From a virus, in IMG/VR virus record IMGVR_UViG_3300002062_000001, positions 1 through 64,000 of that record: DNA of 64,000 nucleotides. The stretch is one strand, 5' to 3'. Both the position numbers and the translations under genes were made by a program. The notes under the pieces are model-generated. The model did not search any database, was not told the origin of the DNA, and worked only from the letters and a program-made list of their open reading frames with translations. Positions 47,908 to 64,000 of this stretch are shown here, in pieces (the first letter of the stretch is position 1; each line of letters starts with the position of its first letter).

Positions 47908-49354
47908 CGTCCATTCCTTTCAGGCATCGTTTCAGAATCCAGTCCATGACGTGCGTCGGCATCGCGTTGCCTATCGCACAATATCGAGGGCCATCCGGGG
48001 TCCGGGTCAGCACTGCGACATCCTCGGGTGAATAGCCGCTTTCCAGCAGATACCGGCGATCATCTTCGATGTCGCCTTCCTTCCGTCTGGCTTTCGGCCA
48101 TTCGATCAGTGTGTGGTCGTCCGGGAAGCCCTGCAGCCGCTCAGCTTCGCGTGGCGTGATCCGGCGGACGACGAACTGTCTGCTGTCGAAGATCACCGGG
48201 TCTTGGTCGCCCTTGTCCGCATCCGCTGTCAGGGGCGGGAAGACATCGCTGGGCGCGCCGTCTTTGTCTCTGGTGAAGAAGCTGGGCTTGAAGGCGACCG
48301 CCTGCGGGGTCCGGCGCGCCTCGATCGTATAGGCGACATCTTCCGCGATCCCCGCGCCCTGCGGTCCAGCTTCCGGGTTCTCACTTGTCGCGCGCTCTTG
48401 GATAGCGATGGCGACCTGTCCCCCGGAATTCGGGTGGCTCTTGTCGTGCTTCATCGCGCGCAAGGTTGGCGAAACTTCTCCCACATCTGCCCCATTGTCG
48501 GTGCAGGAAAACGCCACTAAATTTTGCGTTTCGTTGCCGGATGGTCCGCCGGTCCCCTTCGCCCACTTAGAAGATACGCACCCGGCAATCTGCCCATGAT
48601 GGCCTGCTACCGTGACCCGCTCAGGACCGCTTCCAGCGCCGCCTTCAGGAATGGAAATAACTTGTTCGACAGGCTCTTCTTTTCGGCGCGGCGCAGAATG
48701 CCGGTGCAGGCTTTGACGCTCAAAGAGAACCGACGCGGGGTCTGGACCGTCTCCAAGATCGACCACAACGAACAGACGCTTGCGTCGTTGGGCCAGTCCG
48801 AAGAATTCAGCGTTGAGAACCCGCCAGCAGAGCCGTGCCCGTGGCCCGGAAGCCATACCGACGACGGGCCAGCTTCCCCCGTCTGGCGTACACATGGGAT
48901 GATCTGCCCCGATAATTCCTGAAATGAAACATCCGAAGGCGTTGGTGTCGTCGCTGAGGACGCCGGGGACGTTCTCCCAGACAACGCATCGAAGAGGTCC
49001 GTTTGATCTGAGGTCATGCACCAGTTCCACGAATTTCAGTGTGAGGTTGCCACGCGCGTCGTCCGTGCCCTTCCGCTTCCCGCTCAGGCTGAACGCCTGA
49101 CACGGCGTCCCCGCAACAAGGATCTCTGGAAGCGGCACCCGATCAGCTTTTAACCGCGCCGCAGTGATCTGGGTGAAGTCACCATAAAGCGTGCCGCCGT
49201 GGTTCGATGGCCCTTCTTCGATGGGTCGATAGCCCAGCTTCTGGCACAAAACCGCGCGCGGGAATGGTTCGATTTCAGAAGCCGCGCGCCACTCGATTTC
49301 CGGGCAAGCGACTTCTGGACTGCCGATTCCTGAGCAAACCGTCATGCCAATCAT
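47894..49354 (-). CDS. DNA cytosine-5 methyltransferase
   Basis: C5-methyltransferase motifs in order: CSGIGSPE, GTPCQAFS, WENVPG, QRRKRLF, ...RLQGFPD, GNAMP. Confidence 0.9.
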   Translation of the reverse strand: MIGMTVCSGIGSPEVACPEIEWRAASEIEPFPRAVLCQKLGYRPIEEGPSNHGGTLYGDFTQITAARLKADRVPLPEILVAGTPCQAFSLSGKRKGTDDARGNLTLKFVELVHDLRSNGPLRCVVWENVPGVLSDDTNAFGCFISGIIGADHPMCTPDGGSWPVVGMASGPRARLCWRVLNAEFFGLAQRRKRLFVVVDLGDGPDPASVLFERQSLHRHSAPRRKEEPVEQVISIPEGGAGSGPERVTVAGHHGQIAGCVSSKWAKGTGGPSGNETQNLVAFSCTDNGADVGEVSPTLRAMKHDKSHPNSGGQVAIAIQERATSENPEAGPQGAGIAEDVAYTIEARRTPQAVAFKPSFFTRDKDGAPSDVFPPLTADADKGDQDPVIFDSRQFVVRRITPREAERLQGFPDDHTLIEWPKARRKEGDIEDDRRYLLESGYSPEDVAVLTRTPDGPRYCAIGNAMPTHVMDWILKRCLKGMDDAPL

Positions 49355-49951: not shown

Positions 49952-50559
49952 GTAAATTCAGCCTCGGCATCAGCCTTGGCCTTCGCGGCTGCGTCGGCTT
50001 CGGTTTCATCATCCAAGGCGTCGTCGTCGAGCGTATCGGCTGCGTCCTTTTTGTTTTGCTCTGCCAGTGCTTCGTTCAGGATCGACTGGCCTTCATGCCA
50101 TGCCGCATTGAACGCCTGAACCAGTTCCTGATCTTCGTAGTCGCAGACCATCGGCGCATCTTGGCGACCGGCGGTGAACCCTTTGTTGCTGGCGCGCGAC
50201 AGTTCTGTCTTACGCTCTTCGGCTTTCGACATTTTCTTGGGGCTGTCGAACTTCAGTTCCGTCTGGAACCCGACCGGCATCCGCATCATCTGTTTGATGG
50301 CTCGAGCCTGCGATTCCTGTCGCTCTTGCTCTTCCGGCGACAGCTTGTTCAGCTTCCGCACCGCGTCCAGAACGCCCAGAGTGACGCCCTTCGATTTGAT
50401 TTCCTGCCTGACTTCGCCCTTGCGAGCCTGAAGCGCCTTGATCTGGGCTTCCAGTTTCTCTTCGCGCGCGATCAGCTTTTGCAGTTCTTCGGGCTGACAG
50501 TTGATGCCAGACAGTTCGGTGATTTCCGGTCCCATATTGTGGTCCTTACCCTTCGCCAT
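49948..50559 (-). CDS. protein with N-terminal DUF2312/GapR-like domain and acidic C-terminus
   Basis: ELQKLIAREEKLEAQIKALQARKGEVRQEIKSKGVTLGVLDAVRKLNKL aligns by eye with GapR (QLKSIIDRVERLEVEKAEI..IKEVYAEAKGNGFDVKVLKKVV). ATG at 50559 follows GAAGGAAG. Confidence 0.5.
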   Translation of the reverse strand: MAKGKDHNMGPEITELSGINCQPEELQKLIAREEKLEAQIKALQARKGEVRQEIKSKGVTLGVLDAVRKLNKLSPEEQERQESQARAIKQMMRMPVGFQTELKFDSPKKMSKAEERKTELSRASNKGFTAGRQDAPMVCDYEDQELVQAFNAAWHEGQSILNEALAEQNKKDAADTLDDDALDDETEADAAAKAKADAEAEFT

Positions 50560-50854
50560 TTTCGGTGTCTTCCTTCTGTTTGGCGTCTTCCAGCCGCCGT
50601 TGTTGCATGATGATCCTCGCCTTCCGCGAAGTGTCATAGGTCGTCGTCGGAATTTTTCCGGTGTGCTTGGGGTCTTCGCGTGCAGCTATCGCGAGACGCA
50701 GACGGTCAACCCATTTGGTGTCGCCGGTCACGTCAACGCCCAGCTTCGATTTGCTGCAGATGCCTTCTTCCAGGAATGCTTCGACTTCGGCGACGAACGC
50801 GACGAAATCGTGGTCTGGTCGAAGGTCTTCGGGGGTGTCTGTATTATCAGCCAT
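50546..50854 (-). CDS. hypothetical protein, first gene of the leftward early operon
   Basis: ATG at 50854. The ORF extends to a TTG at 50878. Confidence 0.45.
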   Translation of the reverse strand: MADNTDTPEDLRPDHDFVAFVAEVEAFLEEGICSKSKLGVDVTGDTKWVDRLRLAIAAREDPKHTGKIPTTTYDTSRKARIIMQQRRLEDAKQKEDTENGEG

Positions 50855-50899
50855 CCGCACAAAGGGGATAAAACCCAAGGCGATGTCAAGAATTATCGC

Positions 50900-50942
50900 G
50901 GGTTATAACCCTTAAAAAGCTGTTGCGCTCAGGGTTTAATCC
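50900..50942. promoter_or_regulatory. divergent control region with palindrome GGGTTATAACCC and related GGGTTTAATCC
   Basis: A perfect 12-bp palindrome at 50900-50911, TTGCGC at 50923-50928 and GGGTTTAATCC at 50932-50942. The region lies between divergent operons. Confidence 0.45.
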
Positions 50943-50982
50943 GTTACAGATCGGATGGGTTTGACACATTGAAGGATATGAC

Positions 50983-51351
50983 ATGCTGACGAAGCGCCAG
51001 AAAGTTAACTGCGACGGATGCACCAGATGCTGTCAGGGGTTCCAGCAAATCATGCTGAAGCCCGAAGACAATCCCGATCTGTACCAGACTGCAGAAACCA
51101 TATCAGCACTGACCGGCGAAACCGGCTTGGCCCTTGCTCAGAAGCCTAATGGCGACTGCGTTTATCTGGGCGAAGAAGGATGCACGATCTATGACCGCGC
51201 GCCCGCCATCTGTCGCCATTTCGATTGCAGGCAGATGGCTGCCCTTCTTCGATCAAAGATGACCAGAGCCGAATTCCGGCGCGTGGTCAGGGCGGAAACC
51301 GCCGGTGTGCTGAAGCGTGGCGTTGAACTTGGAAGGGAAGACACCCCATGA
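50983..51351 (+). CDS. YkgJ-family (UPF0153) cysteine-cluster protein
   Basis: CDGCTRCC ... GCTIYDRAPAICRHFDC pattern. Confidence 0.7.
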   Translation: MLTKRQKVNCDGCTRCCQGFQQIMLKPEDNPDLYQTAETISALTGETGLALAQKPNGDCVYLGEEGCTIYDRAPAICRHFDCRQMAALLRSKMTRAEFRRVVRAETAGVLKRGVELGREDTP

Positions 51352-52478
51352 CTGAACAGACCGAACTGCTACCGCTAGGCATCCACTTTGGGCTGCCCCA
51401 AGACCAGTATCTGGACGATCCGGGCCTTGGATCGACACAGGTCAAGGAACTGAACATCGACCCGCTGGAATACTGGTGGAAGTCCCCGATGGGTCCGGGT
51501 GTGGAACGGAAGGAATCGGATGCGATGACCTTCGGGACTGCGCTGCACTCTATCGTTCTCGAGGGCCAAGGCGCATTCGAACGGCTTTATTCGGTCGCCC
51601 CGCGCAAGTCTGACTATGAAGGGCTGCTGGTCACGAACGACGATATGAAGGAATGGCTGAAGGCTCGAGGGCACCCCACGAAAGGCACGAAGGCTGTGCT
51701 GATCGACGCGCTGAAGGAAGCTGGATGCAGTTGGCCCATCTGGGAAGATCTGATCGACGCCCACCGCGCGGATTGCGAAATGCGTCAGGTCGAAAGTCTG
51801 GACGCTGAAGTCGCTGAACAGCTTCAGACCCGCGCGCGGGTTATCCACGCTGATCCGAACGTGAAGACACTGTTAACGGATGGATTTTCGGAAGTGTCGA
51901 TCTTCTGGGAAGATGCGGATGGTGTCCGCTGGAAGGCTCGAGTGGACTACATCAGGAAGCAAGATCAGACAGACCTGAAATCGTTCCAGAACCAGTTCAA
52001 GGAACCGATCATCAAAGCGATCACGAAGCGGATCACCAGCCTGCAGGGCCACATTCAGGCGCGGCTGCACTGGTCCGGGGTTCAGGCGGCGAAGGACATG
52101 CTGCTGGCGCATGGCGACGACGCTGTGTTCCGGCACGGGAAGTGCCTGTCGCCGGACGAAGCGTGGCTGATCGATTTCGCTTCCATGCCGCCGGGACCGT
52201 TCTATTGGATTTTCGCGCAGTCCACGGACGCCCCCATCGTCCGCGCGCTCAAGTGCCCGATGTCTGGCGTTCGGCAGATTCGCGACGTTGACGGAAATGT
52301 CACCGGAACCAGAACTGAGGTTTCCGAAATCTGGAACGATGCCAGCCTGAAGATCAGCTATGCGAAAAAGCTGTGGCTGGACTGCAAGGCGAAGTTCATC
52401 GACGGCGAAGCGTGGATGGATTTGGACGCCCAGCACGAACTGAACGATTGGGATTTCCCCCCGTACATCATCGGCTGA
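51348..52478 (+). CDS. PD-(D/E)xK recombination exonuclease (RecE/DUF3799-like) with an inserted SAP motif
   Basis: FGTALHSIVLEG and E-x-S...KARVDYI...TDLKS nuclease-type motifs. SAP-like segment MKEWLKARGHPTKGTKAVLIDALKEAG. Confidence 0.6.
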   Translation: MTEQTELLPLGIHFGLPQDQYLDDPGLGSTQVKELNIDPLEYWWKSPMGPGVERKESDAMTFGTALHSIVLEGQGAFERLYSVAPRKSDYEGLLVTNDDMKEWLKARGHPTKGTKAVLIDALKEAGCSWPIWEDLIDAHRADCEMRQVESLDAEVAEQLQTRARVIHADPNVKTLLTDGFSEVSIFWEDADGVRWKARVDYIRKQDQTDLKSFQNQFKEPIIKAITKRITSLQGHIQARLHWSGVQAAKDMLLAHGDDAVFRHGKCLSPDEAWLIDFASMPPGPFYWIFAQSTDAPIVRALKCPMSGVRQIRDVDGNVTGTRTEVSEIWNDASLKISYAKKLWLDCKAKFIDGEAWMDLDAQHELNDWDFPPYIIG

Positions 52479-52494
52479 ACAGGAGAACAGCACC

Positions 52495-53490
52495 ATGAAC
52501 GACGACGAAGACTTCCACGTTGAAAGTGCCCAGCGCAAAGCCACCCCGGTCATCATCGGGCTTTATGGGATGTCCGGGTGCGGAAAGACCCTTTCCGGGC
52601 TGAAGATGGCGCGCGGTCTGGCTGGCCCAGATGGCAAGATTGGGGTGATCGATACCGAGAACCACCGCGCGCAACTCTATTCGGGACGCCCGGAAATCGG
52701 CGACTATCTGTGCATCACGCTCTTCGAACCCTTCCACCCGGATCGCTTCAAAGCTGCAGTGAAGCGGCTCGAGGCAGAAGGATGCACGGTCATTATGATC
52801 GACAGCATCAGCGCCGAATGGGAAGGGCCGGGTGGCGTTCTGGACATGGCGGACAAGGAACAGGAACGCACCGGCAAGACTGGCCTGCACATCTGGAACA
52901 AGCCGAAGATGAAGCACAAGGGGATGGTCCAGCGGCTGATCCGTTCACCGGCTCACATCATCTGCTGTTGCCGCGGCAAGCACGAGATGGTGCAGAAGGG
53001 CAAGGAAGTCATCCGTGGTGACATCGTGCCCATTCAGGAAAACGGCTTCATCTATGAAATGACGGTTCACATGCGTCTGGACGTGGATGGCAACACGCCC
53101 ACCGTGACGAAGTGCTTAGACGAACTGATCCACTACATCGACGAGCGCAAGCCCATCACTGTCGAGACTGGCGCGAAGATCGCCGAATGGGTGAACAAGG
53201 GCGCGGCTGTCGATGAAGCCCTTCGCCTGCTGCTACTGACCGCGACCGATGCCGCTGAGCGGGGCAGGGAATCGCTGAAGGCTTTCGTCAATTCTCTGGA
53301 TCAGACAGAGCGGGTGCAGCTTCGCCCGTACCAGACGGAACTGAACACCACCGCCAAGTCAGCGGATCAGGTCAGCAGCAGCGACCCGGACGCGACAACG
53401 GGTCCAGATCCTGAGAAGGCAGCACAGGCGGCGAAAGCATTCGGTCAGCGCGACGAAGAGAAGACCAGCAGCGCGCAAGAAACTTGCTAA
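52495..53490 (+). CDS. AAA_24 / Sak4-like RecA-fold recombination ATPase
   Basis: Walker A LYGMSGCGKT and Walker B VIMIDSIS. Confidence 0.7.
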   Translation: MNDDEDFHVESAQRKATPVIIGLYGMSGCGKTLSGLKMARGLAGPDGKIGVIDTENHRAQLYSGRPEIGDYLCITLFEPFHPDRFKAAVKRLEAEGCTVIMIDSISAEWEGPGGVLDMADKEQERTGKTGLHIWNKPKMKHKGMVQRLIRSPAHIICCCRGKHEMVQKGKEVIRGDIVPIQENGFIYEMTVHMRLDVDGNTPTVTKCLDELIHYIDERKPITVETGAKIAEWVNKGAAVDEALRLLLLTATDAAERGRESLKAFVNSLDQTERVQLRPYQTELNTTAKSADQVSSSDPDATTGPDPEKAAQAAKAFGQRDEEKTSSAQETC

Positions 53491-53645
53491 GCTGAAGAAA
53501 GCGATGGCGCGCAAGCCGCGCCGTCGTGGTTCTCAATCAGGGATGATTGGGCACGTACATTCATCAAAGGCTGGACTTTCTATGGCTGTCATGGCCGCGC
53601 TGGCTTTTCAGACAGCCCCAATCAAAAATTACGAGGAAGACTAGA

Positions 53646-54875
53646 ATGCCCACTGAACCAGAAGTGATCGACGTAACCCCTGACCAGATCGACAGCGGGG
53701 ACGCGCCGGAAAAAACGAAGATCGACCCGGAACAGGTCGAAATGACAGACACCGGAATCGTTGTGCATGGCTCTGGCCTAACGCTGGCGGATGTCTTCAA
53801 GGTCGATGAAGGCGTGGAAACCGTCATCAGCGCCATCGAAGACCGGGTGAAGAATTCCACCCCGGACCTGTCCACGCTGAAGGGACGCGAAGCTGTGCGG
53901 AAGCTGGCTGCTGATGTCTCGAGGGCCAAGACCAAACTGGATGCGGCCGGCGAAGCCGTGAAAGCTGACGCTCAGGCAGTGGTGAACGCAGTCAACGCAG
54001 ATCGCCGGAAGCTGAAGGACCGGCTGGACGCCCTACGCGATGAAGCCCGGAAGCCCCTGACCGAATGGGAACAGGCTGAAGAAGCGCGGAAGGCCGGTCT
54101 GGCAGCGCGCCTGAACGCTCTGGAAGCCCTGAACAAGATCGGGCAACAGGACAGCGCCGAAGAAATCCAGACCCGGATCGACAGCGCCGAAGCCACAGTG
54201 ATCGACGATAGCTGGGATGAACTGGAAGAAGAAGCCGCCCGGTCGAAGGAAATGGTCCTGACAGCCCTGCGCGGTGCCCATGCCGTCGCCGCTGAGCGTG
54301 AGGCAGAACGCGCTGAACTGGAAGCCCTGCGCGAAGCCGCCCGGAAGCGCGAAGAGGAAGAGGCAGCCGCCCAAGCCGCCGAAGAACAGCGCCGCCGGGA
54401 AGAGGAAGAAGCCCAGCGCGCGAAGGAAGAGGAAGAGCGCCGCGCGCGTGAGGCAGCCGAAGCCGAAGAGCGGCAGAAGCGTGAAGCGGCTGAAGCTGCC
54501 CAGCGTGCCGCTGAAGAGGCAGCCCAGCGCGAACGGGATGAAGCTGACCGCCTTCGCCGGGAAGCCGAAGAACAGCGCGAACGCGAACGCGCTGAAGAGG
54601 CCAAGCGGATCGCCGATGCTGAGGCAGCCCAGAAAGCTGCTGAAGAGCGCGCCGCCCGCGCCGCTCAGGAAGAGCGCGACCGGCAAGAGCAAGAGCGGAA
54701 GGACGCCGCCGATGCTGAAGCCAAGCGCCGCGCCGATGCTGAGCATCGCGAAAAGGTGGTGGCAGCATCTGCGAAAGCAATCACCGGCGAAACACGTCTG
54801 GCGGACAAAACAGCGCGAAAGCTGATCGAAGCAATCGCCGCCGGGAAAGTCCCCAGCGTGTCGATCAAGTTCTGA
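53646..54875 (+). CDS. DUF1351-like protein with a long Glu/Arg/Ala-rich coiled coil
   Basis: ATG at 53646 follows GAGGAAG. It occupies the slot next to Sak4 that DUF1351 proteins usually take. Charged low-complexity region at about 54270-54760. Confidence 0.45.
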   Translation: MPTEPEVIDVTPDQIDSGDAPEKTKIDPEQVEMTDTGIVVHGSGLTLADVFKVDEGVETVISAIEDRVKNSTPDLSTLKGREAVRKLAADVSRAKTKLDAAGEAVKADAQAVVNAVNADRRKLKDRLDALRDEARKPLTEWEQAEEARKAGLAARLNALEALNKIGQQDSAEEIQTRIDSAEATVIDDSWDELEEEAARSKEMVLTALRGAHAVAAEREAERAELEALREAARKREEEEAAAQAAEEQRRREEEEAQRAKEEEERRAREAAEAEERQKREAAEAAQRAAEEAAQRERDEADRLRREAEEQRERERAEEAKRIADAEAAQKAAEERAARAAQEERDRQEQERKDAADAEAKRRADAEHREKVVAASAKAITGETRLADKTARKLIEAIAAGKVPSVSIKF

Positions 54876-55576
54876 TGCTGATCCGAGTGATCGACTTCGA
54901 AACGACGGGTCTGGGCGATGATGCCCAGCCCATAGAAGTCGGCTGGACCGATCTGGTGGATGGGGTCGTCAGGGACACCACGTCACTGCTGGTGGCCCCA
55001 GACTGGCCAGTGGAAATCGAGCCGGAAGCGCGCGCGGCGCATCACATCGACCCCCATGACGTGATGACTTTCGGCGTATCTTTGGAGCGCATGGAAGCGC
55101 ATCTTCAAGCTGGGACGCCAGACCTGCTGGCTTCGCATTATGCGGAATTCGACCGGAAGTTCTACACGCCACCGGCCGGCACGATCTGGCTCTGCACCGA
55201 AAAGTGCGCTCGAGCCGCATGGGAGAAAGCGCCCAGCTACGGCAATCAGGTCTTGCGATACTGGCTGAACCTGCAGGTCAACCCACAACTGGCGACACCC
55301 GCGCACCGGGCTGGGCCTGACACCTACGTCACCGCCCATCTGCTTCAGCATCTGCTGACCGGCGCAACGCTGGACACCTTGATCGAATGGACGCGGGAAC
55401 CACGGGTCTTCTGGAAGATGCCATTCGGCAAACACCGGGGCGAACGGTTCGCGGACCTGCCAGACGACTACATCAAGTGGATGCTGTCGCCCAAGGCTGC
55501 AGACATGGACCCAGAAATCTTGGCGTCTGCGCGCCGGGAAGCGAACCGGAGGGCAGGTTATCTGCCATTCGCATGA
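54875..55576 (+). CDS. DnaQ/ExoX-like DEDDh 3'-5' exonuclease with C-terminal KHRG (DUF3820-like) domain
   Basis: Exo I VIDFETTG, Exo III HRAGPDTYV, and C-terminal MPFGKHRGERFADLPDDYIKWML. Confidence 0.8.
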   Translation: MLIRVIDFETTGLGDDAQPIEVGWTDLVDGVVRDTTSLLVAPDWPVEIEPEARAAHHIDPHDVMTFGVSLERMEAHLQAGTPDLLASHYAEFDRKFYTPPAGTIWLCTEKCARAAWEKAPSYGNQVLRYWLNLQVNPQLATPAHRAGPDTYVTAHLLQHLLTGATLDTLIEWTREPRVFWKMPFGKHRGERFADLPDDYIKWMLSPKAADMDPEILASARREANRRAGYLPFA

Positions 55577-55998
55577 CGAACGCCGGGAAGCGACCTGGCG
55601 TTAGCGCGCGCGACGCGCGGGTGACATGCGCGAAGATGGCGATGGATCAGGGCACGCCCCTGATCTGCCTGATCTGCAAGCAACCGATCACGCCAGAACA
55701 GATGGCTGCAAGGGGTCAGGATGGCGTCATCAACGAACACTGGACCCCGCGCGGTCTGGGTGGATCAGACGACCCACTGAGCGGGAACCGTGGCTATGTC
55801 CACAAGCCCTGCGCGGACAAAAAAACCCACGGCATCGACGGCGACATTCACAAGGTTGCGAAGACCAAGCGGATCGTCGCCAAGGCCAAGGGCGAAAGGA
55901 AAAGGCGCGGACCACCACTGAAGAGCCGCGGCTTTCAAAAAAACCCCGATCTGGTTCGGGGTCTGGACGGCAAAGTGAAACCAAGGAAGAAAAAATGA
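55573..55998 (+). CDS. HNH endonuclease
   Basis: ATG at 55573 overlaps the upstream TGA. Motif INEHWTPRGLGGSD...GNRGYVHKPCADKKT. Confidence 0.6.
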   Translation: MTNAGKRPGVSARDARVTCAKMAMDQGTPLICLICKQPITPEQMAARGQDGVINEHWTPRGLGGSDDPLSGNRGYVHKPCADKKTHGIDGDIHKVAKTKRIVAKAKGERKRRGPPLKSRGFQKNPDLVRGLDGKVKPRKKK

Positions 55999-56432
55999 GC
56001 GAAGAAAAACAGAAGGACCGGATCGAAGGAACCGATTATTTCGGCATCGTGATGGCTGATGACGACCGGCGGCTGATCCGAAACCCGCGCGTGTCATCCG
56101 CGCTGGCTCGAGCCGGACGGCTGGCCAAGAAACACCAGAAGAAGTTCTATGTTTTGAAGGTCGTCCGGGTCATCACAGCCGAAACTGAGCATGAAGAGCG
56201 CAACCGGGAAGAAGGTCCGCGACGCGACGCATGGGACGCCGCATGTGCTGTGATGCAGCGCGAGCGCCAGCACGCGATCCGGCACCTGAAAAAAGCCCAC
56301 AAGCTGCTGAAACAAAGGCTTTCGGATGAAGACCTGACCGATGAAATGTCCGATCTGATCGCTGCGATTGAAACGGCGAAAGGTGTCTTGGACGGCCAGA
56401 TCGATCTGGATGCCGACGATCAGAAAAAATAA
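55995..56432 (+). CDS. hypothetical protein (145 aa)
   Basis: ATG at 55995 overlaps the upstream stop. Confidence 0.5.
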   Translation: MSEEKQKDRIEGTDYFGIVMADDDRRLIRNPRVSSALARAGRLAKKHQKKFYVLKVVRVITAETEHEERNREEGPRRDAWDAACAVMQRERQHAIRHLKKAHKLLKQRLSDEDLTDEMSDLIAAIETAKGVLDGQIDLDADDQKK

Positions 56433-56521
56433 AATAAGGGTTTGATCCCTGATTTAATCTGTGATTAGGCTGCCCCGTCCACTGAGAAGGACAAAACCCT
56501 TACAGCAAATTGGAGACACCC

Positions 56522-57085
56522 ATGCTGAAACTCGAAAAAGACCAAGACCTTGTGCTGGCGAAAGCCGATGGCTCTGCAGCAAACAACGTGACGGCTGGCG
56601 TCGGATGGGATGCCGCCGAAGAAGGCGCGACCGTCGATCTGGACATTGCCGCGTCCGTCTTCCGGGGCACCGAACTGGTCAACACCCTGTACTATGGCAC
56701 GCCGAAGAACGCTGATGGCAAGCTGGCGATCCCCGGCATGGTCCACAGCGGCGACGACCTGACCGGCGACAACTCGGATGATGGCCCGGACGAAGAAATC
56801 CAGATCGATCTTTCCGCCGTCGAAGGCGACCGCGTGGAACTGCTGGTCAATCTCTACAACGCAGCTTCGAAGGGTCAGACCCTCGGCATCGCCAAGAACG
56901 CATTCGTGCAGGTTGGCGGCGATGTGGAAGACGCCCGCTTCACGGTCACGGACGACATGACCGGGCACACCATGCACGTCGGCACGCTGACGAAGCAAGA
57001 CGATGGCTGGCACTTCAGCCCCCACGGCACGATGCTGGGCGATGTGGACCTGAACGGAGCGAATGCCGCCGTCAAAGGCGCGTAA
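56522..57085 (+). CDS. terD: TerD-domain stress protein
   Basis: GVGWDA...VDLDIAA...MVHSGDDLTGDNSDDGPDEEIQIDL matches the TerD Ca-binding signature (GDNxTGxGxGDDE). ATG follows GGAGA. Confidence 0.8.
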   Translation: MLKLEKDQDLVLAKADGSAANNVTAGVGWDAAEEGATVDLDIAASVFRGTELVNTLYYGTPKNADGKLAIPGMVHSGDDLTGDNSDDGPDEEIQIDLSAVEGDRVELLVNLYNAASKGQTLGIAKNAFVQVGGDVEDARFTVTDDMTGHTMHVGTLTKQDDGWHFSPHGTMLGDVDLNGANAAVKGA

Positions 57086-57114
57086 TCACCCCTTTCAGTC
57101 ATCCAACATAGGAG

Positions 57115-57138
57115 GGGCAGGGGGTCAAAGCCCTGCCC
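57115..57138 (+). terminator. hairpin followed by a T-rich tract after terD (possible attenuator/terminator)
   Basis: GGGCAGGG-ggtcaaag-CCCTGCCC followed by TTATT. Confidence 0.4.
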
Positions 57139-57146
57139 TTATTCAC

Positions 57147-57674
57147 ATGGTCAGCATCATTTTTACTGCGCTTTCTGCTCTGGTCGCGATCCTCTTCGCT
57201 TTCTGGTGCCTGAAGCTGTTCAAATCCAGCAAGGTCATGGGCGTCGCCGGTCTGGTCGCCCTTGGCATCATCTGGGTGGGCTTCGAAATTGTCCGCCCTC
57301 ACGTCACCCACGAAGCGATCACCGGCACCGAAGTCCGCCGGATCGACAAAGACGGTCTTGGGCCACTCCCATCCGTCGATGTCCAGTTCATCTACACCGC
57401 CGATCAGGCTTATCAGAACCGCGATAGCTGGTGGTGGTTGAAGAAGAATTCGGACAATCTCTATCGGGACGCGAAGACCATTGAAGGCACCGAAGATCCT
57501 GTCTGGATCGTCTACAATGGCGCGCGTTCGACCCCGCTGGACTGGTGGGGAAACATCATCGGGATGGGGCAATCCTTTCCGATGTTCACCGCTCTTCGGA
57601 TCGCGATCTTCTATCTGATCGCCCTGATCCTGATCGGCGTCATCGGCGTGGCGGTTCGCAAGATTGCCCGCTGA
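57147..57674 (+). CDS. membrane protein with N- and C-terminal TM segments (DUF1523-like, from memory)
   Basis: Hydrophobic N- and C-termini. Central motifs VDVQFIYTAD...YQNRDSWWW...NLYRDA. Confidence 0.5.
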   Translation: MVSIIFTALSALVAILFAFWCLKLFKSSKVMGVAGLVALGIIWVGFEIVRPHVTHEAITGTEVRRIDKDGLGPLPSVDVQFIYTADQAYQNRDSWWWLKKNSDNLYRDAKTIEGTEDPVWIVYNGARSTPLDWWGNIIGMGQSFPMFTALRIAIFYLIALILIGVIGVAVRKIAR

Positions 57675-57712
57675 ACTACCCCTTCAACAACTGATACCCG
57701 GAGACATAAATC

Positions 57713-58150
57713 ATGGGCTTTTTCTCGGATAAATTAGGCGCTTTCGGTGCATGGCTGGACAAGGCCAAGGATCAACTGAGCGGGAACCTTGCGAAGCTGC
57801 AAGGCAAGGGACCGCTTGAGCGTCTGGCAGCCTGCGCGTTCCTGATCGCGAATTCAGACGGTGACATCGACGCCGATGAAATCGAAAAGTTCGCAGACAT
57901 CGTGAAGCGCAACGCGCCACAGTTCAGCGAAGACGACGCACGCGCCGCCTTTACCAAGGCACGCGAGAACGGCGACACCAACAGCTTGCTTGCCCTGATC
58001 GGGAAGGCACCTGCAGAAGAAGGTGAAACGCTGGTCATGGCTGCCATCGCAATCGGTAGCGCGGACGGCGAATTCGACGACGACGAAAAGGCGATGGCAC
58101 GACGCATCTGCACCGCGTTGTTCATCCAGCCGTCGAAGTTTGATCTGTGA
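57713..58150 (+). CDS. terB: TerB-family protein
   Basis: Two ADG-type repeats: IANSDGDIDADEIEKF and IGSADGEFDDDEKAM. Confidence 0.7.
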   Translation: MGFFSDKLGAFGAWLDKAKDQLSGNLAKLQGKGPLERLAACAFLIANSDGDIDADEIEKFADIVKRNAPQFSEDDARAAFTKARENGDTNSLLALIGKAPAEEGETLVMAAIAIGSADGEFDDDEKAMARRICTALFIQPSKFDL

Positions 58151-59106
58151 TTGGCGGCGACACGCTCTTGTGGTTGGCGCTGATCGTCATGGGCGGGGGT
58201 ATCCTCGCCTATGACATCTTTTGCCACCGCGATGAAAGGGTGATCGGCCTGCGCGAAGCTGCAGTCTGGTCCACCGGCTATGTCATCATCGCGATCCTTT
58301 ATGGGATTCTGGTCTACTATGTCCGGGGCGCGGAAGACGCCGCGAAATACTATACCGGGTGGACGCTCGAGAAAGTTCTATCGCTGGACAACGTGATGGT
58401 GTTCGGCGTGATCTTTTCCTATTTCGGCATCGCCCCAGAGCATCGCCACTGGATTCTGCATTGGGGCATTCTGGGCGCAATCGTCTTGCGGCTGATCTTT
58501 GCCGCCGTTGGCGTCGGGATGCTGAAGGCTTTCGGGGCACCGATGCTGATCGTCTTCGGCTTGATCGTTCTTTGGTCAGCTTGGAAGATTTGGCAGGAAC
58601 TTCGGAAGGGCGACGACGACGAACCCGTGGATTACGAATCGACGTGGTACATCAAGGGGACGAAGCGCCTGCTGGGTGATCGGGTGACATCGGAGACGAA
58701 CGGTCACGCGCTATTCATCAACGGGGCAGCCACGCCGCTGTTCTTCTGCCTGATCGCCATCGAAATCAGCGATGTGATGTTCGCTCTGGACAGCATCCCG
58801 GCGATCATCGCCGTGACCGAAGACTTGCTTCTGGTCTATGCCGCGATGGTGTTCGCGATCATGGGCCTTCGGTCGCTGTACTTCCTGCTGGATGCCTTGC
58901 TGAGAGTGCTTCACCTGCTGTCCTATGCGCTGGTGCTGGTGCTGTTCTGGATTGGCGTCAAAATGCTGCTGGCGGCATCTGAGCAACTGACAGGCTACGG
59001 GACGCACGTCGATCCCATCACCAGCCTGATCTTCGTCCTGACCACTCTGGCGCTGGGGGTTGTAGCCAGCTTCATCTGGCCCGAGAAAGGCAAGGCAGAT
59101 GGCTGA
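58147..59106 (+). CDS. terC: TerC-family integral membrane protein
   Basis: Motif LEKVLSLDNVMVFGVIFSYFGI...HW.ILHWGILGAIVLRL plus a second half-repeat. A GTG start overlaps the terB stop. Confidence 0.85.
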   Translation: MIGGDTLLWLALIVMGGGILAYDIFCHRDERVIGLREAAVWSTGYVIIAILYGILVYYVRGAEDAAKYYTGWTLEKVLSLDNVMVFGVIFSYFGIAPEHRHWILHWGILGAIVLRLIFAAVGVGMLKAFGAPMLIVFGLIVLWSAWKIWQELRKGDDDEPVDYESTWYIKGTKRLLGDRVTSETNGHALFINGAATPLFFCLIAIEISDVMFALDSIPAIIAVTEDLLLVYAAMVFAIMGLRSLYFLLDALLRVLHLLSYALVLVLFWIGVKMLLAASEQLTGYGTHVDPITSLIFVLTTLALGVVASFIWPEKGKADG

Positions 59107-59317
59107 TGAACCGGACATCGCTGCGATCATCGAAAGCATGAGTGGCCCCCAGCGTTACGCGCTGGCGGCACCTTATCACCCGAACAATCAGCTTCGGGGA
59201 AGGGTCAGCACCGTCAAGGCGCTGGAAAAGATGGGGCTGGCGAAGGACGGGATGCGGACCCCCTTGGGGACCGATGTTTGCAGCCATCTGATTGAAATGG
59301 GCTATGGCGAATCGTGA
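59099..59317 (+). CDS. hypothetical protein (72 aa)
   Basis: ATG overlaps the terC 3' end. Confidence 0.5.
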   Translation: MADEPDIAAIIESMSGPQRYALAAPYHPNNQLRGRVSTVKALEKMGLAKDGMRTPLGTDVCSHLIEMGYGES

Positions 59318-59798
59318 ACCAGTCCTATGCGCGCATTGCCGCCATCCGTCCCGTCTCACGACGGGGCGGGAAATCTATCCGCACCGCCGCGACCTGCGCG
59401 ACCTGCGCTTCTGGCGCTGTGACCGCTGCGACGCCCATGTGGGCTGCCACAAGCCCGGTGTCGGCTTCGGCGATGGCACGGTTGCCTATGGTCGCCCAGC
59501 GAACAAGGAACTGCGTCGCGCTCGAGGGTGGATGCACAAGAAATTCGATCCGATCTGGATGGCAGCGCCGCGCAAGAAACGACGCACGGCGCGCCGCCGC
59601 CTCTATCGGATACTGTCCCGCGCGCTGCAGATCAGCACCACAGAATGCCACATCGGAATGTTCGATCTGGCGCAATGTCGCCGGTGCTGGGTGCTGCTGG
59701 ACGATGTGACGTGGGAACACGCTTTCGATCAGGGACGCTACGACCCGGACCTTGATCGGAATGAACAACTGGTCGTGAAAGAAGAAGGAACTGAATGA
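59304..59798 (+). CDS. DUF3268-like zinc-ribbon protein
   Basis: Motif CAHC...GREIYPHRRDLRDLRFWRCDRCDAHVGCH...ELRRARGWMHKKFDPIW. Confidence 0.6.
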   Translation: MANREPVLCAHCRHPSRLTTGREIYPHRRDLRDLRFWRCDRCDAHVGCHKPGVGFGDGTVAYGRPANKELRRARGWMHKKFDPIWMAAPRKKRRTARRRLYRILSRALQISTTECHIGMFDLAQCRRCWVLLDDVTWEHAFDQGRYDPDLDRNEQLVVKEEGTE

Positions 59799-60019
59799 TG
59801 GGAATTTTCATCGCGCTACTGGTCTGGGGCTTGGGTATGATCCCTGCCGCTGACCGCTTCAAGGATCGCTTCGGCAAGCCTGAAGGCGAAGACGCCGGGG
59901 AAGACGCGAACGACGCCCACGAAACCCTGTATTGGGCGGCTGTGGTGCTGTGGCCTGTTCTGGTGCTGGTGCCGCTCTGCAGGCAGATATTCCGCTTGCT
60001 CAAAGAACTGGCGGACTGA
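59795..60019 (+). CDS. small membrane protein (2 TM segments)
   Basis: Hydrophobic N-terminal and central segments. Confidence 0.5.
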   Translation: MMGIFIALLVWGLGMIPAADRFKDRFGKPEGEDAGEDANDAHETLYWAAVVLWPVLVLVPLCRQIFRLLKELAD

Positions 60020-60025
60020 CCCGCC

Positions 60026-60370
60026 ATGCCTCGGAATATGTCATTCGCCATGACAACCGAGCAAGTCCGGGCGCGCTCAAAAGACGTGACCCGGCGCTTC
60101 GGCTGGTGGTTCCTGAAGCCCGGTGACATCGTGAACGCGGTGGAAAAAAGCATGGGGCTGAAGAAGGGCGAAACCGTCGTCCGGCTCTGCCAGATCAGGA
60201 TAGTCAGCACGCGCGGCGAACTGCTGAACCAGATCGAAGCTGAAGACATGCCCCGCGAAGGCTTCCCGGAAATGGCCCCGGACGCCTTTGTCCAGATGCT
60301 GGTCGATCACTACCGCTGCGATCCTGACAGCGAAGTGAACCGGATCGAATTTGAATATTTGGAGGATTGA
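60026..60370 (+). CDS. ASCH (PUA-like) domain protein
   Basis: Pattern ...KDVTRRFGWWFLKPGD...; 114 aa. Confidence 0.6.
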   Translation: MPRNMSFAMTTEQVRARSKDVTRRFGWWFLKPGDIVNAVEKSMGLKKGETVVRLCQIRIVSTRGELLNQIEAEDMPREGFPEMAPDAFVQMLVDHYRCDPDSEVNRIEFEYLED

Positions 60371-60372
60371 GG

Positions 60373-60591
60373 ATGCCCGGCGAAACCCACACCTGCGACG
60401 ACTGCGAACACTGCAAGCTGAAGACGAAGCATGACGGGACATTCTTTCGCTTCCCGCCCAGCGCCCACCCTGTTCCGGGTCCGCACAACCCCGGCGTCTT
60501 CGACGATGTGGTCTGGTTGCGACCGGCTGTGGCGCTGAGCGAACCGAAATGCGGCGAGTTCAAGCGCGCCCAGATCAATCAAAGGCTTTAG
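60373..60591 (+). CDS. hypothetical Cys-containing protein
   Basis: ATG at 60373 lies 7 nt after GGAGGA. Confidence 0.45.
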   Translation: MPGETHTCDDCEHCKLKTKHDGTFFRFPPSAHPVPGPHNPGVFDDVVWLRPAVALSEPKCGEFKRAQINQRL

Positions 60592-60593
60592 AC

Positions 60594-60755
60594 ATGGAAC
60601 ACGCCTTCCATGTGCTGGGCACGCTTTTCATCCTTTGGCTGTTCACCCGATGGAGCGACAGCGAACCTTGGATGAAATTCTTCATACTGCTGCTGGGGCT
60701 GCTGGGCGTGATCGTCACGCTGCGCGGCTTCGGCATCGTTATCACGACAACCTGA
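60594..60755 (+). CDS. small membrane protein (53 aa)
   Basis: ATG at 60594. Two hydrophobic segments. Confidence 0.45.
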   Translation: MEHAFHVLGTLFILWLFTRWSDSEPWMKFFILLLGLLGVIVTLRGFGIVITTT

Positions 60756-60779
60756 ACCGACCCAGAGAGGACACCCAAA

Positions 60780-62771
60780 ATGAATGCCGACTTCCCTAAA
60801 TTCTCGCGATCCGTAGCCCAACGCTTCGAATTGATGTCGCAACATGAACTGTATGTCATGGACAGCGACCGCGACGCCATCTGGTCACAGTACCTAAACG
60901 CTTTCCCACAAGGATCGAACCCGGTCTTCCGCGTCAACACGGCGCACGATTGCTCTTGCTGCAGGCACTTCGTCCGCACCATCGGCAATGTCGTTGCGAT
61001 CGTCGATGGTGCAGTCCAGACCGTCTGGGACATCGAAGGGCTGGAACACCCCTATGATGTGGTTGCTGCCACGATGGCTGAACACATTCGATCCCTGCAG
61101 ATTCGTGGCGTCTTCCGCACCAAAGAACGTCAGTTTGGCGCTGAGAAGACCCGCGAACTGCTGGAAGACCAGACGACCCGGACGTGGCATCATTTCGTTG
61201 CGAAGATCGCTGACCGGCACTTCAGCCCGGACGCCGACAGCGTGCGCGGTGTAATCGCCAGCACGGCTGGCGTCTTCCGGCGCGGCGTGAATGAACTGAC
61301 GGCTGACAGCCTCGAGACGATCAGCGATCTGATCGCGTCGAAGGCACTCTATCGAGGCGAAGAACACAAGGCAGCCGTCGATGGGTTTCAGGCGTTGATG
61401 CGTGGTGCTGATGCTTCCAGCGATCAAAGCCTTTTCATCTGGGAGAATGTGCGCGACCGGAACGCTGGGTTCCGCAATACGGTCATCGGCACGCTGGCCC
61501 AAGACCTGAGCGAAGGGAAGGACATCGAAGCCGCCGTGAAAGCGTTCGAAGCCAAGGTGGCCCCCGAGAACTACAAACGCCCCACCGCCCTTATCACCCC
61601 GCGCATGGTCGATGCCGCAATGGCGACCATCGGCGACCTGGGTCTGGAACCTGCCTTGGAACGTCGCTTCGCGCGCCTGTCTGATGTCGCCGTGACTGAT
61701 GTGCTGTTCGTCGATAATTCGGTGCAGGGCCAGATGAAGGGCGGCATCCGCGAAGCACTGATGGAGGAAGCCACCGTCGCGAAGCCCAGCTTGGACGGCG
61801 CTCTGGAACTGACCATCGACGACTTCATGGCTGGCGTCGTTCCCAAGGCCAGCAGCATCGATCTGCTGGTGGAAAATTCCATGATGGGCAACTTCGTCAG
61901 CCTGACCGCGCCGGTGCAGGACGACGCCCCGCGCCTGTTCAAGTGGCCCAACGGCTTCGCATGGTCCTACGATGGCGACGTGGCGGATTCGTCGATCAAG
62001 GAACGGGTGAAGCGCGCCGGTGGTCGTGTCGATGCCACCCTTCGGGTCAGCCTTGCATGGACCAACACCGACGATCTGGACATCCACGTCCACGAACCTG
62101 ATCGGAACCACATCCACTACGGCAACAAATGCGGCAAGCTGGATGTGGACATGAATGTCAGCACCCCGGTTCGCGACGCCGTGGAAAACGTCTGCTGGAA
62201 TCGTCCGGCGGATGGCGACTATGTGGTGAAGGTCCACAACTACACCCACCGGGAAAGCCGGGACGTGGGCTTCACGCTCGAGGTCCAGAGCGAAACCGGC
62301 GCTATCGAGACATTCACCTATGCCCACGAAGTCCGCAACAACCAGATGGTGCCTTGCCTGACGATGACGGTGAAGGATGGGCGTCTGGTCGCCGTCAAGA
62401 TGGCCAAGGGACTGACCCGAGACGCCGCCGGTCAGGACAAGTGGGGCATCACCACGCAATCGCTGGTGAAGGTCAACACGCTGATGCTAAGCCCGAACCA
62501 TTGGGGCGACGCCGCCGTGGGAAACCGCCACTGGATGTTCATGCTGGATGGGTGCAAGAACCCCGGCACAGCGCGGGGCATCTACAACGAATTTCTTCTT
62601 CCCGCCCTCGAGCCGCACCGGAAGGTTTTCGAGGTTCTGGGCGCGAAGACGAAATGTCCGCCTGCCGAAGAACAGCTTAGCGGTCTGGGCTTTTCGTCCA
62701 CCCGCAAGGCCAAGGTCAAGTTCTTCGTCAGGGGGACCAATGTGCAGCGCGCTTACAGCGTGCAATTCTAA
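60780..62771 (+). CDS. large conserved-looking protein of unknown function with a YfaP/DUF2135-like beta-sandwich
   Basis: 663 aa. RBS GAGAGGA. N-terminal HDCSCCRHF motif. LRVSLAWTNTDDLDIHVHEP...YGN..GKLDVD...PVENV.W..P.DGDYVVKVHNY resembles DUF2135. Confidence 0.6.
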   Translation: MNADFPKFSRSVAQRFELMSQHELYVMDSDRDAIWSQYLNAFPQGSNPVFRVNTAHDCSCCRHFVRTIGNVVAIVDGAVQTVWDIEGLEHPYDVVAATMAEHIRSLQIRGVFRTKERQFGAEKTRELLEDQTTRTWHHFVAKIADRHFSPDADSVRGVIASTAGVFRRGVNELTADSLETISDLIASKALYRGEEHKAAVDGFQALMRGADASSDQSLFIWENVRDRNAGFRNTVIGTLAQDLSEGKDIEAAVKAFEAKVAPENYKRPTALITPRMVDAAMATIGDLGLEPALERRFARLSDVAVTDVLFVDNSVQGQMKGGIREALMEEATVAKPSLDGALELTIDDFMAGVVPKASSIDLLVENSMMGNFVSLTAPVQDDAPRLFKWPNGFAWSYDGDVADSSIKERVKRAGGRVDATLRVSLAWTNTDDLDIHVHEPDRNHIHYGNKCGKLDVDMNVSTPVRDAVENVCWNRPADGDYVVKVHNYTHRESRDVGFTLEVQSETGAIETFTYAHEVRNNQMVPCLTMTVKDGRLVAVKMAKGLTRDAAGQDKWGITTQSLVKVNTLMLSPNHWGDAAVGNRHWMFMLDGCKNPGTARGIYNEFLLPALEPHRKVFEVLGAKTKCPPAEEQLSGLGFSSTRKAKVKFFVRGTNVQRAYSVQF

Positions 62772-62789
62772 GAAAAGGAGACGACACCG

Positions 62790-63206
62790 ATGGACGGAAT
62801 GTTTGAATTCGCCACCCGCCGGAAGACCCGGTTCCCCTCGAGCCGCGGCGAACTGACCGCCGAACAGCTTTGGGATTTGCCGCTGCTGTCCAGCGACGGG
62901 TTCGATCTGGACACTGTGGCCCGGACGATCAATGGCGACCTGAAGGAAGTCGCTGAAGGCAGCTTCGTCAAAGCGACACCTGACCCGCGCGTGAAGCCGT
63001 TGCGCGCGTGCCTCGACATCGTGAAGCACATCATCGCCGTTAAGCTGGAAGAGCAAGAAAAGGCGAAGAAGGCAGCGGATCGCCGGGAGCGCCGGACTAA
63101 GCTGATTGAAGCCCTTGGCGACAAGGAAGACGCCGAAATGGCGAAGATGTCGAAGAAAAAGCTGCTCGAGGAAATCGAGAAGCTGGACGACGAAGACGAC
63201 GACTGA
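62790..63206 (+). CDS. hypothetical protein with charged coiled-coil C-terminus
   Basis: ATG follows AAAAGGAG. Tightly follows the 663-aa gene. Confidence 0.55.
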   Translation: MDGMFEFATRRKTRFPSSRGELTAEQLWDLPLLSSDGFDLDTVARTINGDLKEVAEGSFVKATPDPRVKPLRACLDIVKHIIAVKLEEQEKAKKAADRRERRTKLIEALGDKEDAEMAKMSKKKLLEEIEKLDDEDDD

Positions 63207-63270
63207 CCGTCGCGCCCATCCCCAAGCCGGGGTGGGCGTAACTTTTTGCACCCCAGCGAGGAACCCAACG

Positions 63271-63924
63271 ATGACGACACCCCATTCTGTGAAGCTGGTC
63301 TGGGTCACGCCAGATGCCGACGCCTTGATGACCTACATGGCGAAGGTGTCGAACCCGGCGAAACAAGACGAACCATCGCCGCGCCTGATCCGTTACCTGA
63401 TGGACAACCACCACTGGTCGCCGTTCGAAATGGCCAATGTCTGTTTTGAGGTAAACACCACCCGCACCATCGGCCGGCAATTCATTCGCCACTGGACCAT
63501 GCGGGTTCAAGAATTCAGCCAGCGGTACGCGGACCCATCTGCCCTTGGCGATCCTATTTTCTCCGAAGCGCGTCTGGCACACCCGACGAACCGCCAAGAC
63601 AGCATTCCGGCGAACGACCCCCTTCTGGAAGACTGGTGGCAACAGGCGCAACAACGCGCATGGGACGTAACCACCGGCATTTACGACGAAGCGCGCCGCC
63701 GGGGCATCACCAAAGAGCAAGCCCGAAACGTCATGTGTGAAGGGCTGACCCCCACGCGCATGTACTTCAACGCGCAGATCAGGACGCTGCTGCATCTGTG
63801 CAATCTTCGGTCGAAGAAACATGGCGCGCAGGACGAAGCTGTCACCGTCGCGCAGGGCGTCGAAAGCCTGATGATCGAACACCTGCCAGACACCCACGAA
63901 GCCTATCTGGAATGGGCAGCATGA
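63271..63924 (+). CDS. thyX: ThyX-like flavin-dependent thymidylate synthase (divergent signature)
   Basis: ATG at 63271 follows GAGGAA. Motifs HHWSPFEMANV and IRHWTMRVQEFSQRY, compared with the ThyX signature RHRxxSxxxxSxRY. Confidence 0.7.
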   Translation: MTTPHSVKLVWVTPDADALMTYMAKVSNPAKQDEPSPRLIRYLMDNHHWSPFEMANVCFEVNTTRTIGRQFIRHWTMRVQEFSQRYADPSALGDPIFSEARLAHPTNRQDSIPANDPLLEDWWQQAQQRAWDVTTGIYDEARRRGITKEQARNVMCEGLTPTRMYFNAQIRTLLHLCNLRSKKHGAQDEAVTVAQGVESLMIEHLPDTHEAYLEWAA

Positions 63925-64000
63925 TCGACAGGAAGGACACGAACCCGAAGGACGCCGTGGGCGTCAGGAAGTGGCGTCAGTTCTTCTGCGTCCCCTTCGC
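63921..64000 (+). CDS. 5' end of a DUF5664-like (dATP/dGTP pyrophosphohydrolase N-terminal domain-like) gene, partial
   Basis: MIDRKDTNPKDAVGVRKWRQFFCVPF... matches the NPKDAxG..K N-terminal pattern. Truncated by the window edge. Confidence 0.45.
   Translation, partial: MIDRKDTNPKDAVGVRKWRQFFCVPF

Follow-up and report, generated by a model that had tools for sequence, protein, structure and literature searches.

What does a small set of Ter genes do in the genome of a mid-sized tailed phage? The question is raised by a metagenomic virus record (IMG/VR IMGVR_UViG_3300002062_000001), positions 1 to 64,000 of which were analysed and are referred to below as the window. At positions 56438-59106 of the window, four genes in a row, all on the plus strand, code for a TerD-domain protein, a membrane protein of the DUF1523 family, a TerB protein and a TerC-family membrane protein. 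Ter operons are widespread, serve as clinical markers and are tied to phage and colicin resistance, while their mechanism has been unclear for decades. As described below, the cassette is an intact, phage-carried four-gene Ter module. We give a probability of about 50% to the reading that it is a vertically inherited, dispensable accessory (moron-type) module which, through cation handling, would protect the infected or lysogenised cell and exclude competitors. The features of the region are the following.

56436-56501, plus strand: conserved 66-nt upstream block containing GGGTTTGATCCC, a probable promoter/operator or leader
56438-56449: near-palindromic site GGGTTTGATCCC, 73 nt upstream of terD
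56522-57085, plus strand: terD, 187 aa, ATG behind a GGAGA Shine-Dalgarno sequence; TerD-domain protein, predicted to be cytosolic and to bind Ca2+
57113-57140, plus strand: hairpin between terD and the DUF1523 gene, GC-rich, with a 10-bp stem
57147-57674, plus strand: gene of the DUF1523-family membrane protein, 175 aa, ATG start; Pfam PF07509
57713-58150, plus strand: terB, 145 aa, two acidic (S/A)DG..D.DE repeats; Pfam PF05099
58147-59106, plus strand: terC, 319 aa, predicted divalent-cation exporter of the TerC/Alx subfamily; Pfam PF03741

The gene boundaries were checked against the gene calls on European Nucleotide Archive (ENA) entry ERZ27298443 (73.6 kb), which carries an identical TerC, and the same four genes were found there. 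An earlier reading of the window, made from the letters of the DNA and referred to here as the sequence-only reading, had started terD at the TTG at 56510. The actual start is the ATG at 56522, which is preceded by GGAGA and agrees with the source-contig gene call; the ATG at 57147 of the DUF1523 gene likewise matches the source-contig call. The GTGA coupling of terB and terC was read correctly and is seen at 58147-58150, with the GTG at 58147 and the TGA at 58148-58150.

All four domain assignments made by the sequence-only reading survived searches with hidden Markov models (HMMs), each protein scoring above its Pfam curated cut-off. TerD matched PF02342 over residues 3-174 of 187 (E 5.5e-22, 78.6 bits, cut-off 25.3), was assigned to phrog_5698 of the PHROG collection and aligned with the Klebsiella TerD structure 2KXT/2KXV (E 1.9e-15), the GD..TG..DDE loop included. 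The Ca-binding signature noticed earlier, SGDDLTGDNSDDGPDEE, is legible in the translation. When the loop is compared with the solved structures 2KXT/2KXV and 3IBZ, it reads GDDLTGDNSDDGPDEE against GDNRTGEGDGDDE, and VDLD stands against FDLD. Judged by these alignments, TerD retains the acidic Ca2+-binding loop (GD..TG..GDDE-type) and the DLD segment, and Ca2+ binding is predicted. TerB matched PF05099 (E 1e-15, 58.5 bits, cut-off 24.4) and belongs to phrog_632, which is labelled “tellurite resistance”; its two acidic repeats, SDGDIDADE and ADGEFDDDE, can be read in the translation as had been proposed.

The assignment of the last gene product to the TerC membrane protein family rests on matches above two cut-offs, those of Pfam PF03741 (E 4.7e-43, 147.4 bits, cut-off 27.8) and of NCBIfam TIGR03718, the TerC/Alx model (298.8 bits, cut-off 246.4); in PHROG, the protein is assigned to phrog_7180. 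It is 34% identical to E. coli Alx, and all five of the Alx residues E86, D92, E213, D216 and D222, which are needed for Mn2+ export (PMC10197570), are invariant in an alignment that includes Alx. By its domain content, the cassette combines the ligand-binding (TerB/TerD) proteins of Ter systems with their membrane component (TerC).

The fourth protein matched PF07509 with an E-value of 5.6e-7 and 29.5 bits (Pfam cut-off 23), and the same Pfam family was pre-assigned to proteins P0001 and P0002. Like Pfam DUF1523, this protein has a transmembrane (TM) segment ahead of a ~100-aa domain that is followed by a C-terminal TM helix, and it keeps the motifs GTEVRR, YIYT, NxDSWWWLK and RS..SW.PN. The window protein represents a divergent branch, ~35% identical to Hyphomicrobiales chromosomal proteins; its clade has an extra N-terminal TM helix relative to the Pfam family, and it sits in a Ter neighbourhood, whereas chromosomal DUF1523 members stand alone. 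Relatives are rare: 59 were returned when 1.84 billion cluster representatives were searched exhaustively with a profile. No PHROG family was found for the protein, and neither it nor TerB had a match in tblastn searches of the INPHARED phage collection. Scans of IMG/VR with the DUF1523 protein, the DUF1523 alignment and TerC gave no match, nor did two scans of JGI metagenome contigs. The sole return from a plasmid collection was a canonical Pasteurella DUF1523 protein with 30% identity.

An AlphaFold2 (AF2) model of the DUF1523 protein was built from 20 sequences, with a predicted local distance difference test score (pLDDT) of 87.9 and a predicted TM-score (pTM) of 0.79; from 3 sequences, no usable model was obtained (pLDDT 51). 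In the model, TM helices at 2-27, 29-49 and 146-174 flank a beta-rich domain at 51-141. The sequence-only reading was therefore right in placing TM helices at both ends of the protein, but three are predicted, two N-terminal and one C-terminal, and not two. The positive-inside rule, applied to KLFKSSK, a positively charged loop, and to the tail RKIAR, predicts that domain 51-141 is periplasmic. Its best matches among solved structures are the OB-fold (oligonucleotide/oligosaccharide-binding fold) B subunits of AB5 toxins (PltB, SubB and LT-IIb B), which are weak matches in Foldseek (E about 1e-3, target-normalised TM-score 0.5-0.6). Uncharacterised phage and giant-virus proteins matched the domain better in the structure search, with E-values of about 1e-6. 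A likeness to the human BK-channel beta subunit, also returned by Foldseek, was rejected as one of topology only (root-mean-square deviation 12-16 Å, TM-score 0.26). A holin-like role was judged unlikely for a 175-aa protein that has a conserved soluble domain of ~95 aa and whose link to TerB extends to non-phage elements.

Where does the cassette come from? Its GC content (58.3% vs 59.1%) and its GC content at third codon positions are in line with those of other phage genes. A sister phage, represented by a 68.6-kb contig (locus L003), shares 70-86% amino acid identity with the window in the cassette proteins and 63-87% in the flanking backbone proteins. Since cassette and flanks are equally diverged, the cassette was present in the common ancestor of the two phages and co-diverged with the phage. 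Among 5.8 billion proteins searched, the relatives of the window TerC form a small clade with 63-98% identity, all on metagenomic phage-like contigs, and below a gap follow all cellular or other-phage TerC proteins, which are at most 47% identical. Phage-like composition, divergence equal to that of the backbone and the distance of cellular TerC exclude a recent host origin, and the cassette is not the host-identical passenger which the sequence-only reading had named as the outcome that would speak against it. Pairwise dN/dS (the ratio of nonsynonymous to synonymous substitution rates) is 0.05-0.36 for the four genes, values that are approximate as dS is near saturation; by this measure, all four genes are under purifying selection. 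The best-conserved gene is terB, with 86% identity to L003 and a dN/dS of 0.05.

The survey of related phages which the sequence-only reading had called for returned the same four genes on one contig (L005), where terD and terB are each followed by a canonical terminator, and reduced versions elsewhere. L003 and L004, two separate assemblies of the same sister phage, have kept DUF1523 and TerB, while terC is absent, terB being followed directly by a homologue of the 72-aa gene that sits after terC in the window. In addition, terD of the sister phage (9381-9937 in both L003 and L004) carries a 4-nt deletion (GTCGATCTGGAC changed to GTCTGGAC), by which the DLD segment loses its first Asp codon (GAT) and the frame is shifted thereafter, so that the gene is split into open reading frames of 79 aa and 141 aa. 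Since terC is missing and terD is frameshifted in this phage, the cassette is dispensable. Three further contigs (L093, L094 and L095) carry TerD-TerB-TerC without DUF1523, their TerC being 75% identical. On L093, a 49.8-kb temperate-phage-like contig, the cassette (7180-12577) lies between a CI-like repressor and an integrase, and on L095 (3516-4916) an IS605/TnpB-type gene comes immediately after it; both locations suggest a way in which the cassette could travel from one element to another. It follows from the variants that the module moves among phages, is modular and is not required. TerB is its sole constant member.

The DUF1523 gene has partners of its own. DUF1523-like and TerB genes are adjacent in at least five divergent mobile-element lineages, whose DUF1523-like proteins are 27-33% identical to the window protein. 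Among the small mobile-looking contigs concerned, L006, L089 and L090 have the order DUF1523-TerB-Na_Ca_ex, in one case (L006) adjoining a MobA relaxase gene, and L096 and L098 the order DUF1523-TerB-TerC. On L007, the DUF1523-TerB pair lies next to a ParE toxin gene, and on L091, a TerF-like vWA protein (a weak match) is followed by TerB and then DUF1523. The best models for the Na_Ca_ex proteins are calcium/sodium antiporters, but the scores are under the curated cut-offs. From these about eight loci we infer, first, a functional link between DUF1523 and TerB, since their adjacency recurs in lineages so divergent and, second, divalent-cation transport as the output of the module, since TerC and CaCA-type transporters exchange in the same position. 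On chromosomes the picture is different. At 80 genome loci (L009-L088, out of 113 found), mostly of Hyphomicrobium and other Hyphomicrobiales, a homologue with ~35% identity is present as one conserved gene amid unrelated metabolic genes, and the canonical DUF1523 gene next to DeoC has no link to Ter either. The one such locus that was scanned with Pfam (L053, DUF1523-like gene at 5986-6543) has an FAA hydrolase, a cyclase, an FGGY kinase and an MFS transporter as neighbours.

Tentatively, the DUF1523-like protein might be an unrecognised, mobile-element-specific component of Ter systems, a membrane-anchored OB-fold sensor in the periplasm that via TerB gates a divalent-cation exporter; we consider this possible though rather doubtful. 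The same caution applies to the cues that such a sensor might perceive, for example an incoming phage, a colicin or cell-wall damage. If the idea is true, Ca2+/Mn2+ efflux would, given the exchange of TerC and CaCA transporters, be the long-sought effector output of Ter, and the 2.6-kb phage cassette would be a minimal self-contained system for proving it. The DUF1523 partner, its recurrent pairing with TerB, the interchangeable TerC/CaCA transporter and the D-x-B-C set in a mid-sized siphovirus appear to be new. A full-text literature search, beyond the reach of which lay Anantharaman et al. 2012, returned no paper tying DUF1523 to Ter.

How could such a set of proteins act? On enterobacterial plasmids, tellurite resistance (Te) requires the TerB/TerC/TerD core, and the complete operon is also implicated in colicin resistance (PacB) and phage inhibition (Phi). 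In the reading to which we give about even odds, the four proteins would assemble at the inner membrane of the infected or lysogenised cell, where the DUF1523 protein would expose its OB-fold domain on the periplasmic side, TerB together with the Ca2+-binding TerD would provide cytosolic metal-sensing adaptors, and TerC would move divalent cations (Mn2+, possibly Ca2+) outward. The altered ionic and envelope state would shield the phage's cell factory from membrane or oxidative damage and would hinder the entry of competing phages or pore-forming toxins, as in the plasmid Phi and PacB phenotypes. Among the roles that the sequence-only reading had suggested for the cassette, superinfection exclusion and envelope protection appear to be the most plausible.

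Several points weigh against this reading. As to function and expression, it is built on sequence and predicted structure, from which we infer complex formation, topology, the transported ion, the timing of expression and the phenotype. Decay in the sister phage shows that the module as a whole is selected for weakly or conditionally. The DUF1523 protein exceeds the Pfam cut-off of PF07509 by a small margin of ~6 bits, and the OB-fold assignment of its domain is weak, with no PDB match at E <= 0.001. The 80 chromosomal DUF1523 homologues have no Ter neighbours, and thus the family is not intrinsically a Ter component. The cassette does not have terE, the second TerD paralogue that the plasmid core needs, and no TelA, vWA/TerY, PRTase or HAD gene is present among the Pfam-annotated genes within 10 kb on either side (the rest of the window was sampled). 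None of the four proteins matched a defence model of PADLOC-DB 2.0 at E <= 0.01.

The alternative that survives best, although we hold it to be rather unlikely, is a metal-homeostasis set with no role in exclusion, in which TerC, tuned by TerB and TerD, would export Mn2+ (or Zn2+/Ca2+) or serve the metalation of exported proteins, and the metal pools of the infected cell would be kept suited to phage replication. Such a role would fit a TerC of the Alx subfamily with all transport residues, and the swap of TerC for a Ca2+/Na+ antiporter type in sibling loci speaks for an output in the form of cation flux. Phages, moreover, commonly carry TerC as a single gene: 175 INPHARED records have a TerC relative and 30 a TerD relative. 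However, the sister phage retains DUF1523 and TerB without a transporter, and it follows that the transporter cannot be the only useful part. A search of 50000-64000 against Rfam gave no match to the yybP-ykoY Mn2+ riboswitch or any other family at E <= 1, so that no Mn2+ riboswitch or metal-responsive element was seen upstream, and metal homeostasis leaves the periplasmic OB-fold protein unexplained.

It is improbable, in our estimate, that the genes are a neutral passenger, acquired from a host or plasmid and on the way to loss. The four genes are intact in the window, with the low dN/dS values and phage-like composition given above, their divergence matches that of the flanking backbone, which speaks for retention since the common ancestor, cellular TerC is far in sequence (at most 47% identity), and conservation of the 66-nt upstream block exceeds that of the coding sequence. 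What loss there is concerns relatives: terC is absent and terD is frameshifted by the 4-nt deletion in the sister phage, DUF1523 is missing from the L093 group, and the L095 copy adjoins an IS605-type TnpB gene. Little weight is given to counter-defence, the third role suggested by the sequence-only reading, in which this membrane-associated set with its cation exporter and Ca2+-binding protein, encoded in an early/replication gene block, would buffer depolarisation or ion fluxes caused by host abortive-infection effectors and keep the cell alive until phage release, since the cassette of the temperate relative stands beside integrase and repressor, where genes expressed from a prophage typically lie, and protection of the lysogen thus fits better than lytic rescue.

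The region upstream of the cassette offers a candidate for its control. As the sequence-only reading had it, a GGGTT..CCC-type motif, GGGTTTGATCCC at 56438-56449, stands ahead of terD. The block that contains it, 56436-56501, is identical to L003 at 61/66 positions (92%), as compared with 71-80% nucleotide identity in coding DNA. As RNA, the block folds with a z-score of -3.4, but a structured-RNA reading finds no support, as L003 does not maintain the inner helix and the remaining pairs never vary. Three similar sites, ~35 bp apart, cluster at 50865-50943 in a 128-nt divergent intergenic region (50855-50982) between a minus-strand gene (start near 50854) and a gene with a CxxCxxCC motif (ATG at 50983). 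They are, in order, GGGGATAAAACCC, the perfect palindrome GGGTTATAACCC and GGGTTTAATCCG, and a TTGACA sequence is located between the first two. In its layout, this region looks like a phage genetic switch. The degenerate motif GGGTTNNAWCCC, a pattern drawn up after the sites had been seen, had 27 strand matches with at most one mismatch, compared with 6.9 +/- 3.2 in shuffled sequence, and this number was reached in 0 out of 100 shuffles. The simplest reading is that sites of the GGGTTTGATCCC type are a putative operator of a phage DNA-binding protein that may also control the cassette.

A hairpin with a T-tract had been described after terD. The hairpin is real (57113-57140; centroid -20.8 kcal/mol, minimum free energy -22.2 kcal/mol), with an unremarkable z-score of -1.7, but the tract is only CUUAUUC and the terminator scan did not call it. 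A hairpin is found at the same position after terD in L003; the orthologous hairpin of L005 has a different stem sequence and is a canonical terminator with UUUUUU. The sole Shine-Dalgarno-like sequence for the DUF1523 gene is AGGAGG at 57110-57115, 32 nt before the ATG and at the 5′ foot of the hairpin, and the same layout is seen in L003. Since folding would bring the Shine-Dalgarno sequence near the start codon, the hairpin may serve translation rather than termination; candidate roles for it are partial termination, stabilisation of the mRNA and bridging of the Shine-Dalgarno sequence to the start codon.

The window as a whole is a metagenomic tailed-phage genome, siphovirus-like. In its first 32 kb, genes for the terminase, portal, head protease, tape measure and tail fibre lie on the minus strand, as does the gene for the small terminase subunit that follows at 33.2-33.9 kb. 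The plus strand from about 51 kb codes for an exonuclease VIII-like protein, AAA_24, a DnaQ-like exonuclease and then DUF3268 and DUF8224; ThyX follows further along the source contig in the same recombination/replication block. The cassette is inside this block, and early or middle expression is therefore plausible. The sequence-only reading had assigned the cassette to an early phage operon, a timing that is suggested by its place amid recombination/replication genes. No integrase or repressor was identified in the scanned parts of the window.

A nucleotide search of INPHARED with the cassette and the 24 kb around it gave no match, which points to the lack of a close sequenced relative in that collection. 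The host is likely alphaproteobacterial, since the best matches of the portal protein are Rhizobium phages (37-40% identity), the best INPHARED match of TerC is Brevundimonas phage Kikimora (45.7%), and the cellular homologues of the DUF1523 protein are from Hyphomicrobiales.

Other genes were noticed in passing. Locus L002 at 15125-16227 (about 63.3-64.0 kb of the window and beyond) carries ThyX, then a dGTP_diPhyd_N (PF18909) protein and DUF5131; a PAPS-reductase-like gene is located at 34999-35760, and there are at least two DNA methyltransferase genes (45669-46364 and 47894-49354). Taken as a group, these genes hint at nucleotide-pool or DNA-modification functions. At 53547-54875, a protein of ~410-440 aa is mostly E/A/R/K-rich, of low complexity and of coiled-coil type; source-contig annotation gives it no family, and long spurious open reading frames lie on the opposite strand. 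At 20799-22667 (minus strand), a head maturation protease domain occupies residues 228-620 and is preceded by a fused N-terminal part with matches to PHROGs labelled “RNA ligase” and the portal C-terminus; this is either an unusual fusion or a misleading PHROG label.

The value of the cassette lies in its small size (four genes, 2.6 kb), its evolutionary stability and the lack of the paralogues and biosynthetic genes of plasmid ter. Natural variants are at hand in which terC, terD or DUF1523 is missing or a Ca2+/Na+ antiporter type takes the place of TerC. The DUF1523-TerB-transporter arrangement provides a testable hypothesis of cation export as the output, and would be the first functional context for an uncharacterised Pfam family. 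For phage biology, the cassette would be a further membrane-acting accessory module, probably for inter-phage competition, an idea that is not new.

Indeed, both the general phenomenon of phage Ter and the explanation favoured here are already published. Iyer et al. (2021) described a near-complete Ter system in Acinetobacter phage ME3 and abbreviated TerD/TerC/TerF/TelA operons in Caulobacter jumbo phages; stand-alone TerB, TerD and TelA genes in phages have also been reported, and superinfection exclusion and xenobiotic tolerance have been proposed as roles of phage Ter (PMC7824862). Other phage genome papers note ter genes as auxiliary genes (PMC11256456, PMC6536676). The view that a compact phage Ter set had gone uncharacterised is overstated, as such operons and the exclusion role are in print (PMC7824862) and TerD, TerB and TerC have PHROG families. 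An experimental study of any phage-borne ter gene was not found in the searchable literature.

Among phages, one comparison is with the single TerC morons of Phapecoctavirus and of ~90-kb Proteus and Cronobacter phages (P59, Privateer and vB_CsaP_009), which belong to the same phrog_7180, are 39-43% identical to the window TerC, are annotated in the match table merely as TerC-type or membrane proteins and are not among the records with a TerD relative. Another is with the Caulobacter/Brevundimonas jumbo phages, whose genomes are > 280 kb and which like the window carry abbreviated sets with TerC and TerD. The order in the Brevundimonas phages is TelA-x-TerC-TerD, and according to PMC7824862 TerF is part of the jumbo-phage sets. 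No TerB was found in the jumbo phages with the window query, and they have no DUF1523, whereas the cassette has both and is without TelA or vWA. With the E. coli Alx/TerC Mn2+ exporters, the cassette TerC has in common a score above the TIGR03718 cut-off and the five acidic residues; it differs in lacking a yybP-ykoY riboswitch, which is typical of the “R_switched” subfamilies though no property of the protein as such, and in being translationally coupled to terB instead.

The last comparison is with the terZABCDEF operons of plasmids and islands (R478, pTE53/pKL53-L and the E. coli O157 islands), in which terB, terC, terD and terE make up the core essential for tellurite resistance (PMC8123226) and TerB is a reported interaction partner of TerC (PMC11003894). 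The complete Ter system also has PRTase/HAD phosphoesterase biosynthesis genes, TelA and TerF/TerY vWA proteins (PMC7824862, after Anantharaman et al. 2012). The cassette shares TerB, TerC and a TerD-family protein with these operons and so holds three of the four plasmid core genes, with TerB directly upstream of TerC as in plasmid ter. It differs from them in having one TerD paralogue and no terE, terZ, terA or terF, in the absence of terXYW or a biosynthetic module, in a TerC to which cellular proteins are at most 47% identical, in its order D-x-B-C with DUF1523 inserted, and in being carried by a phage of ~74 kb.

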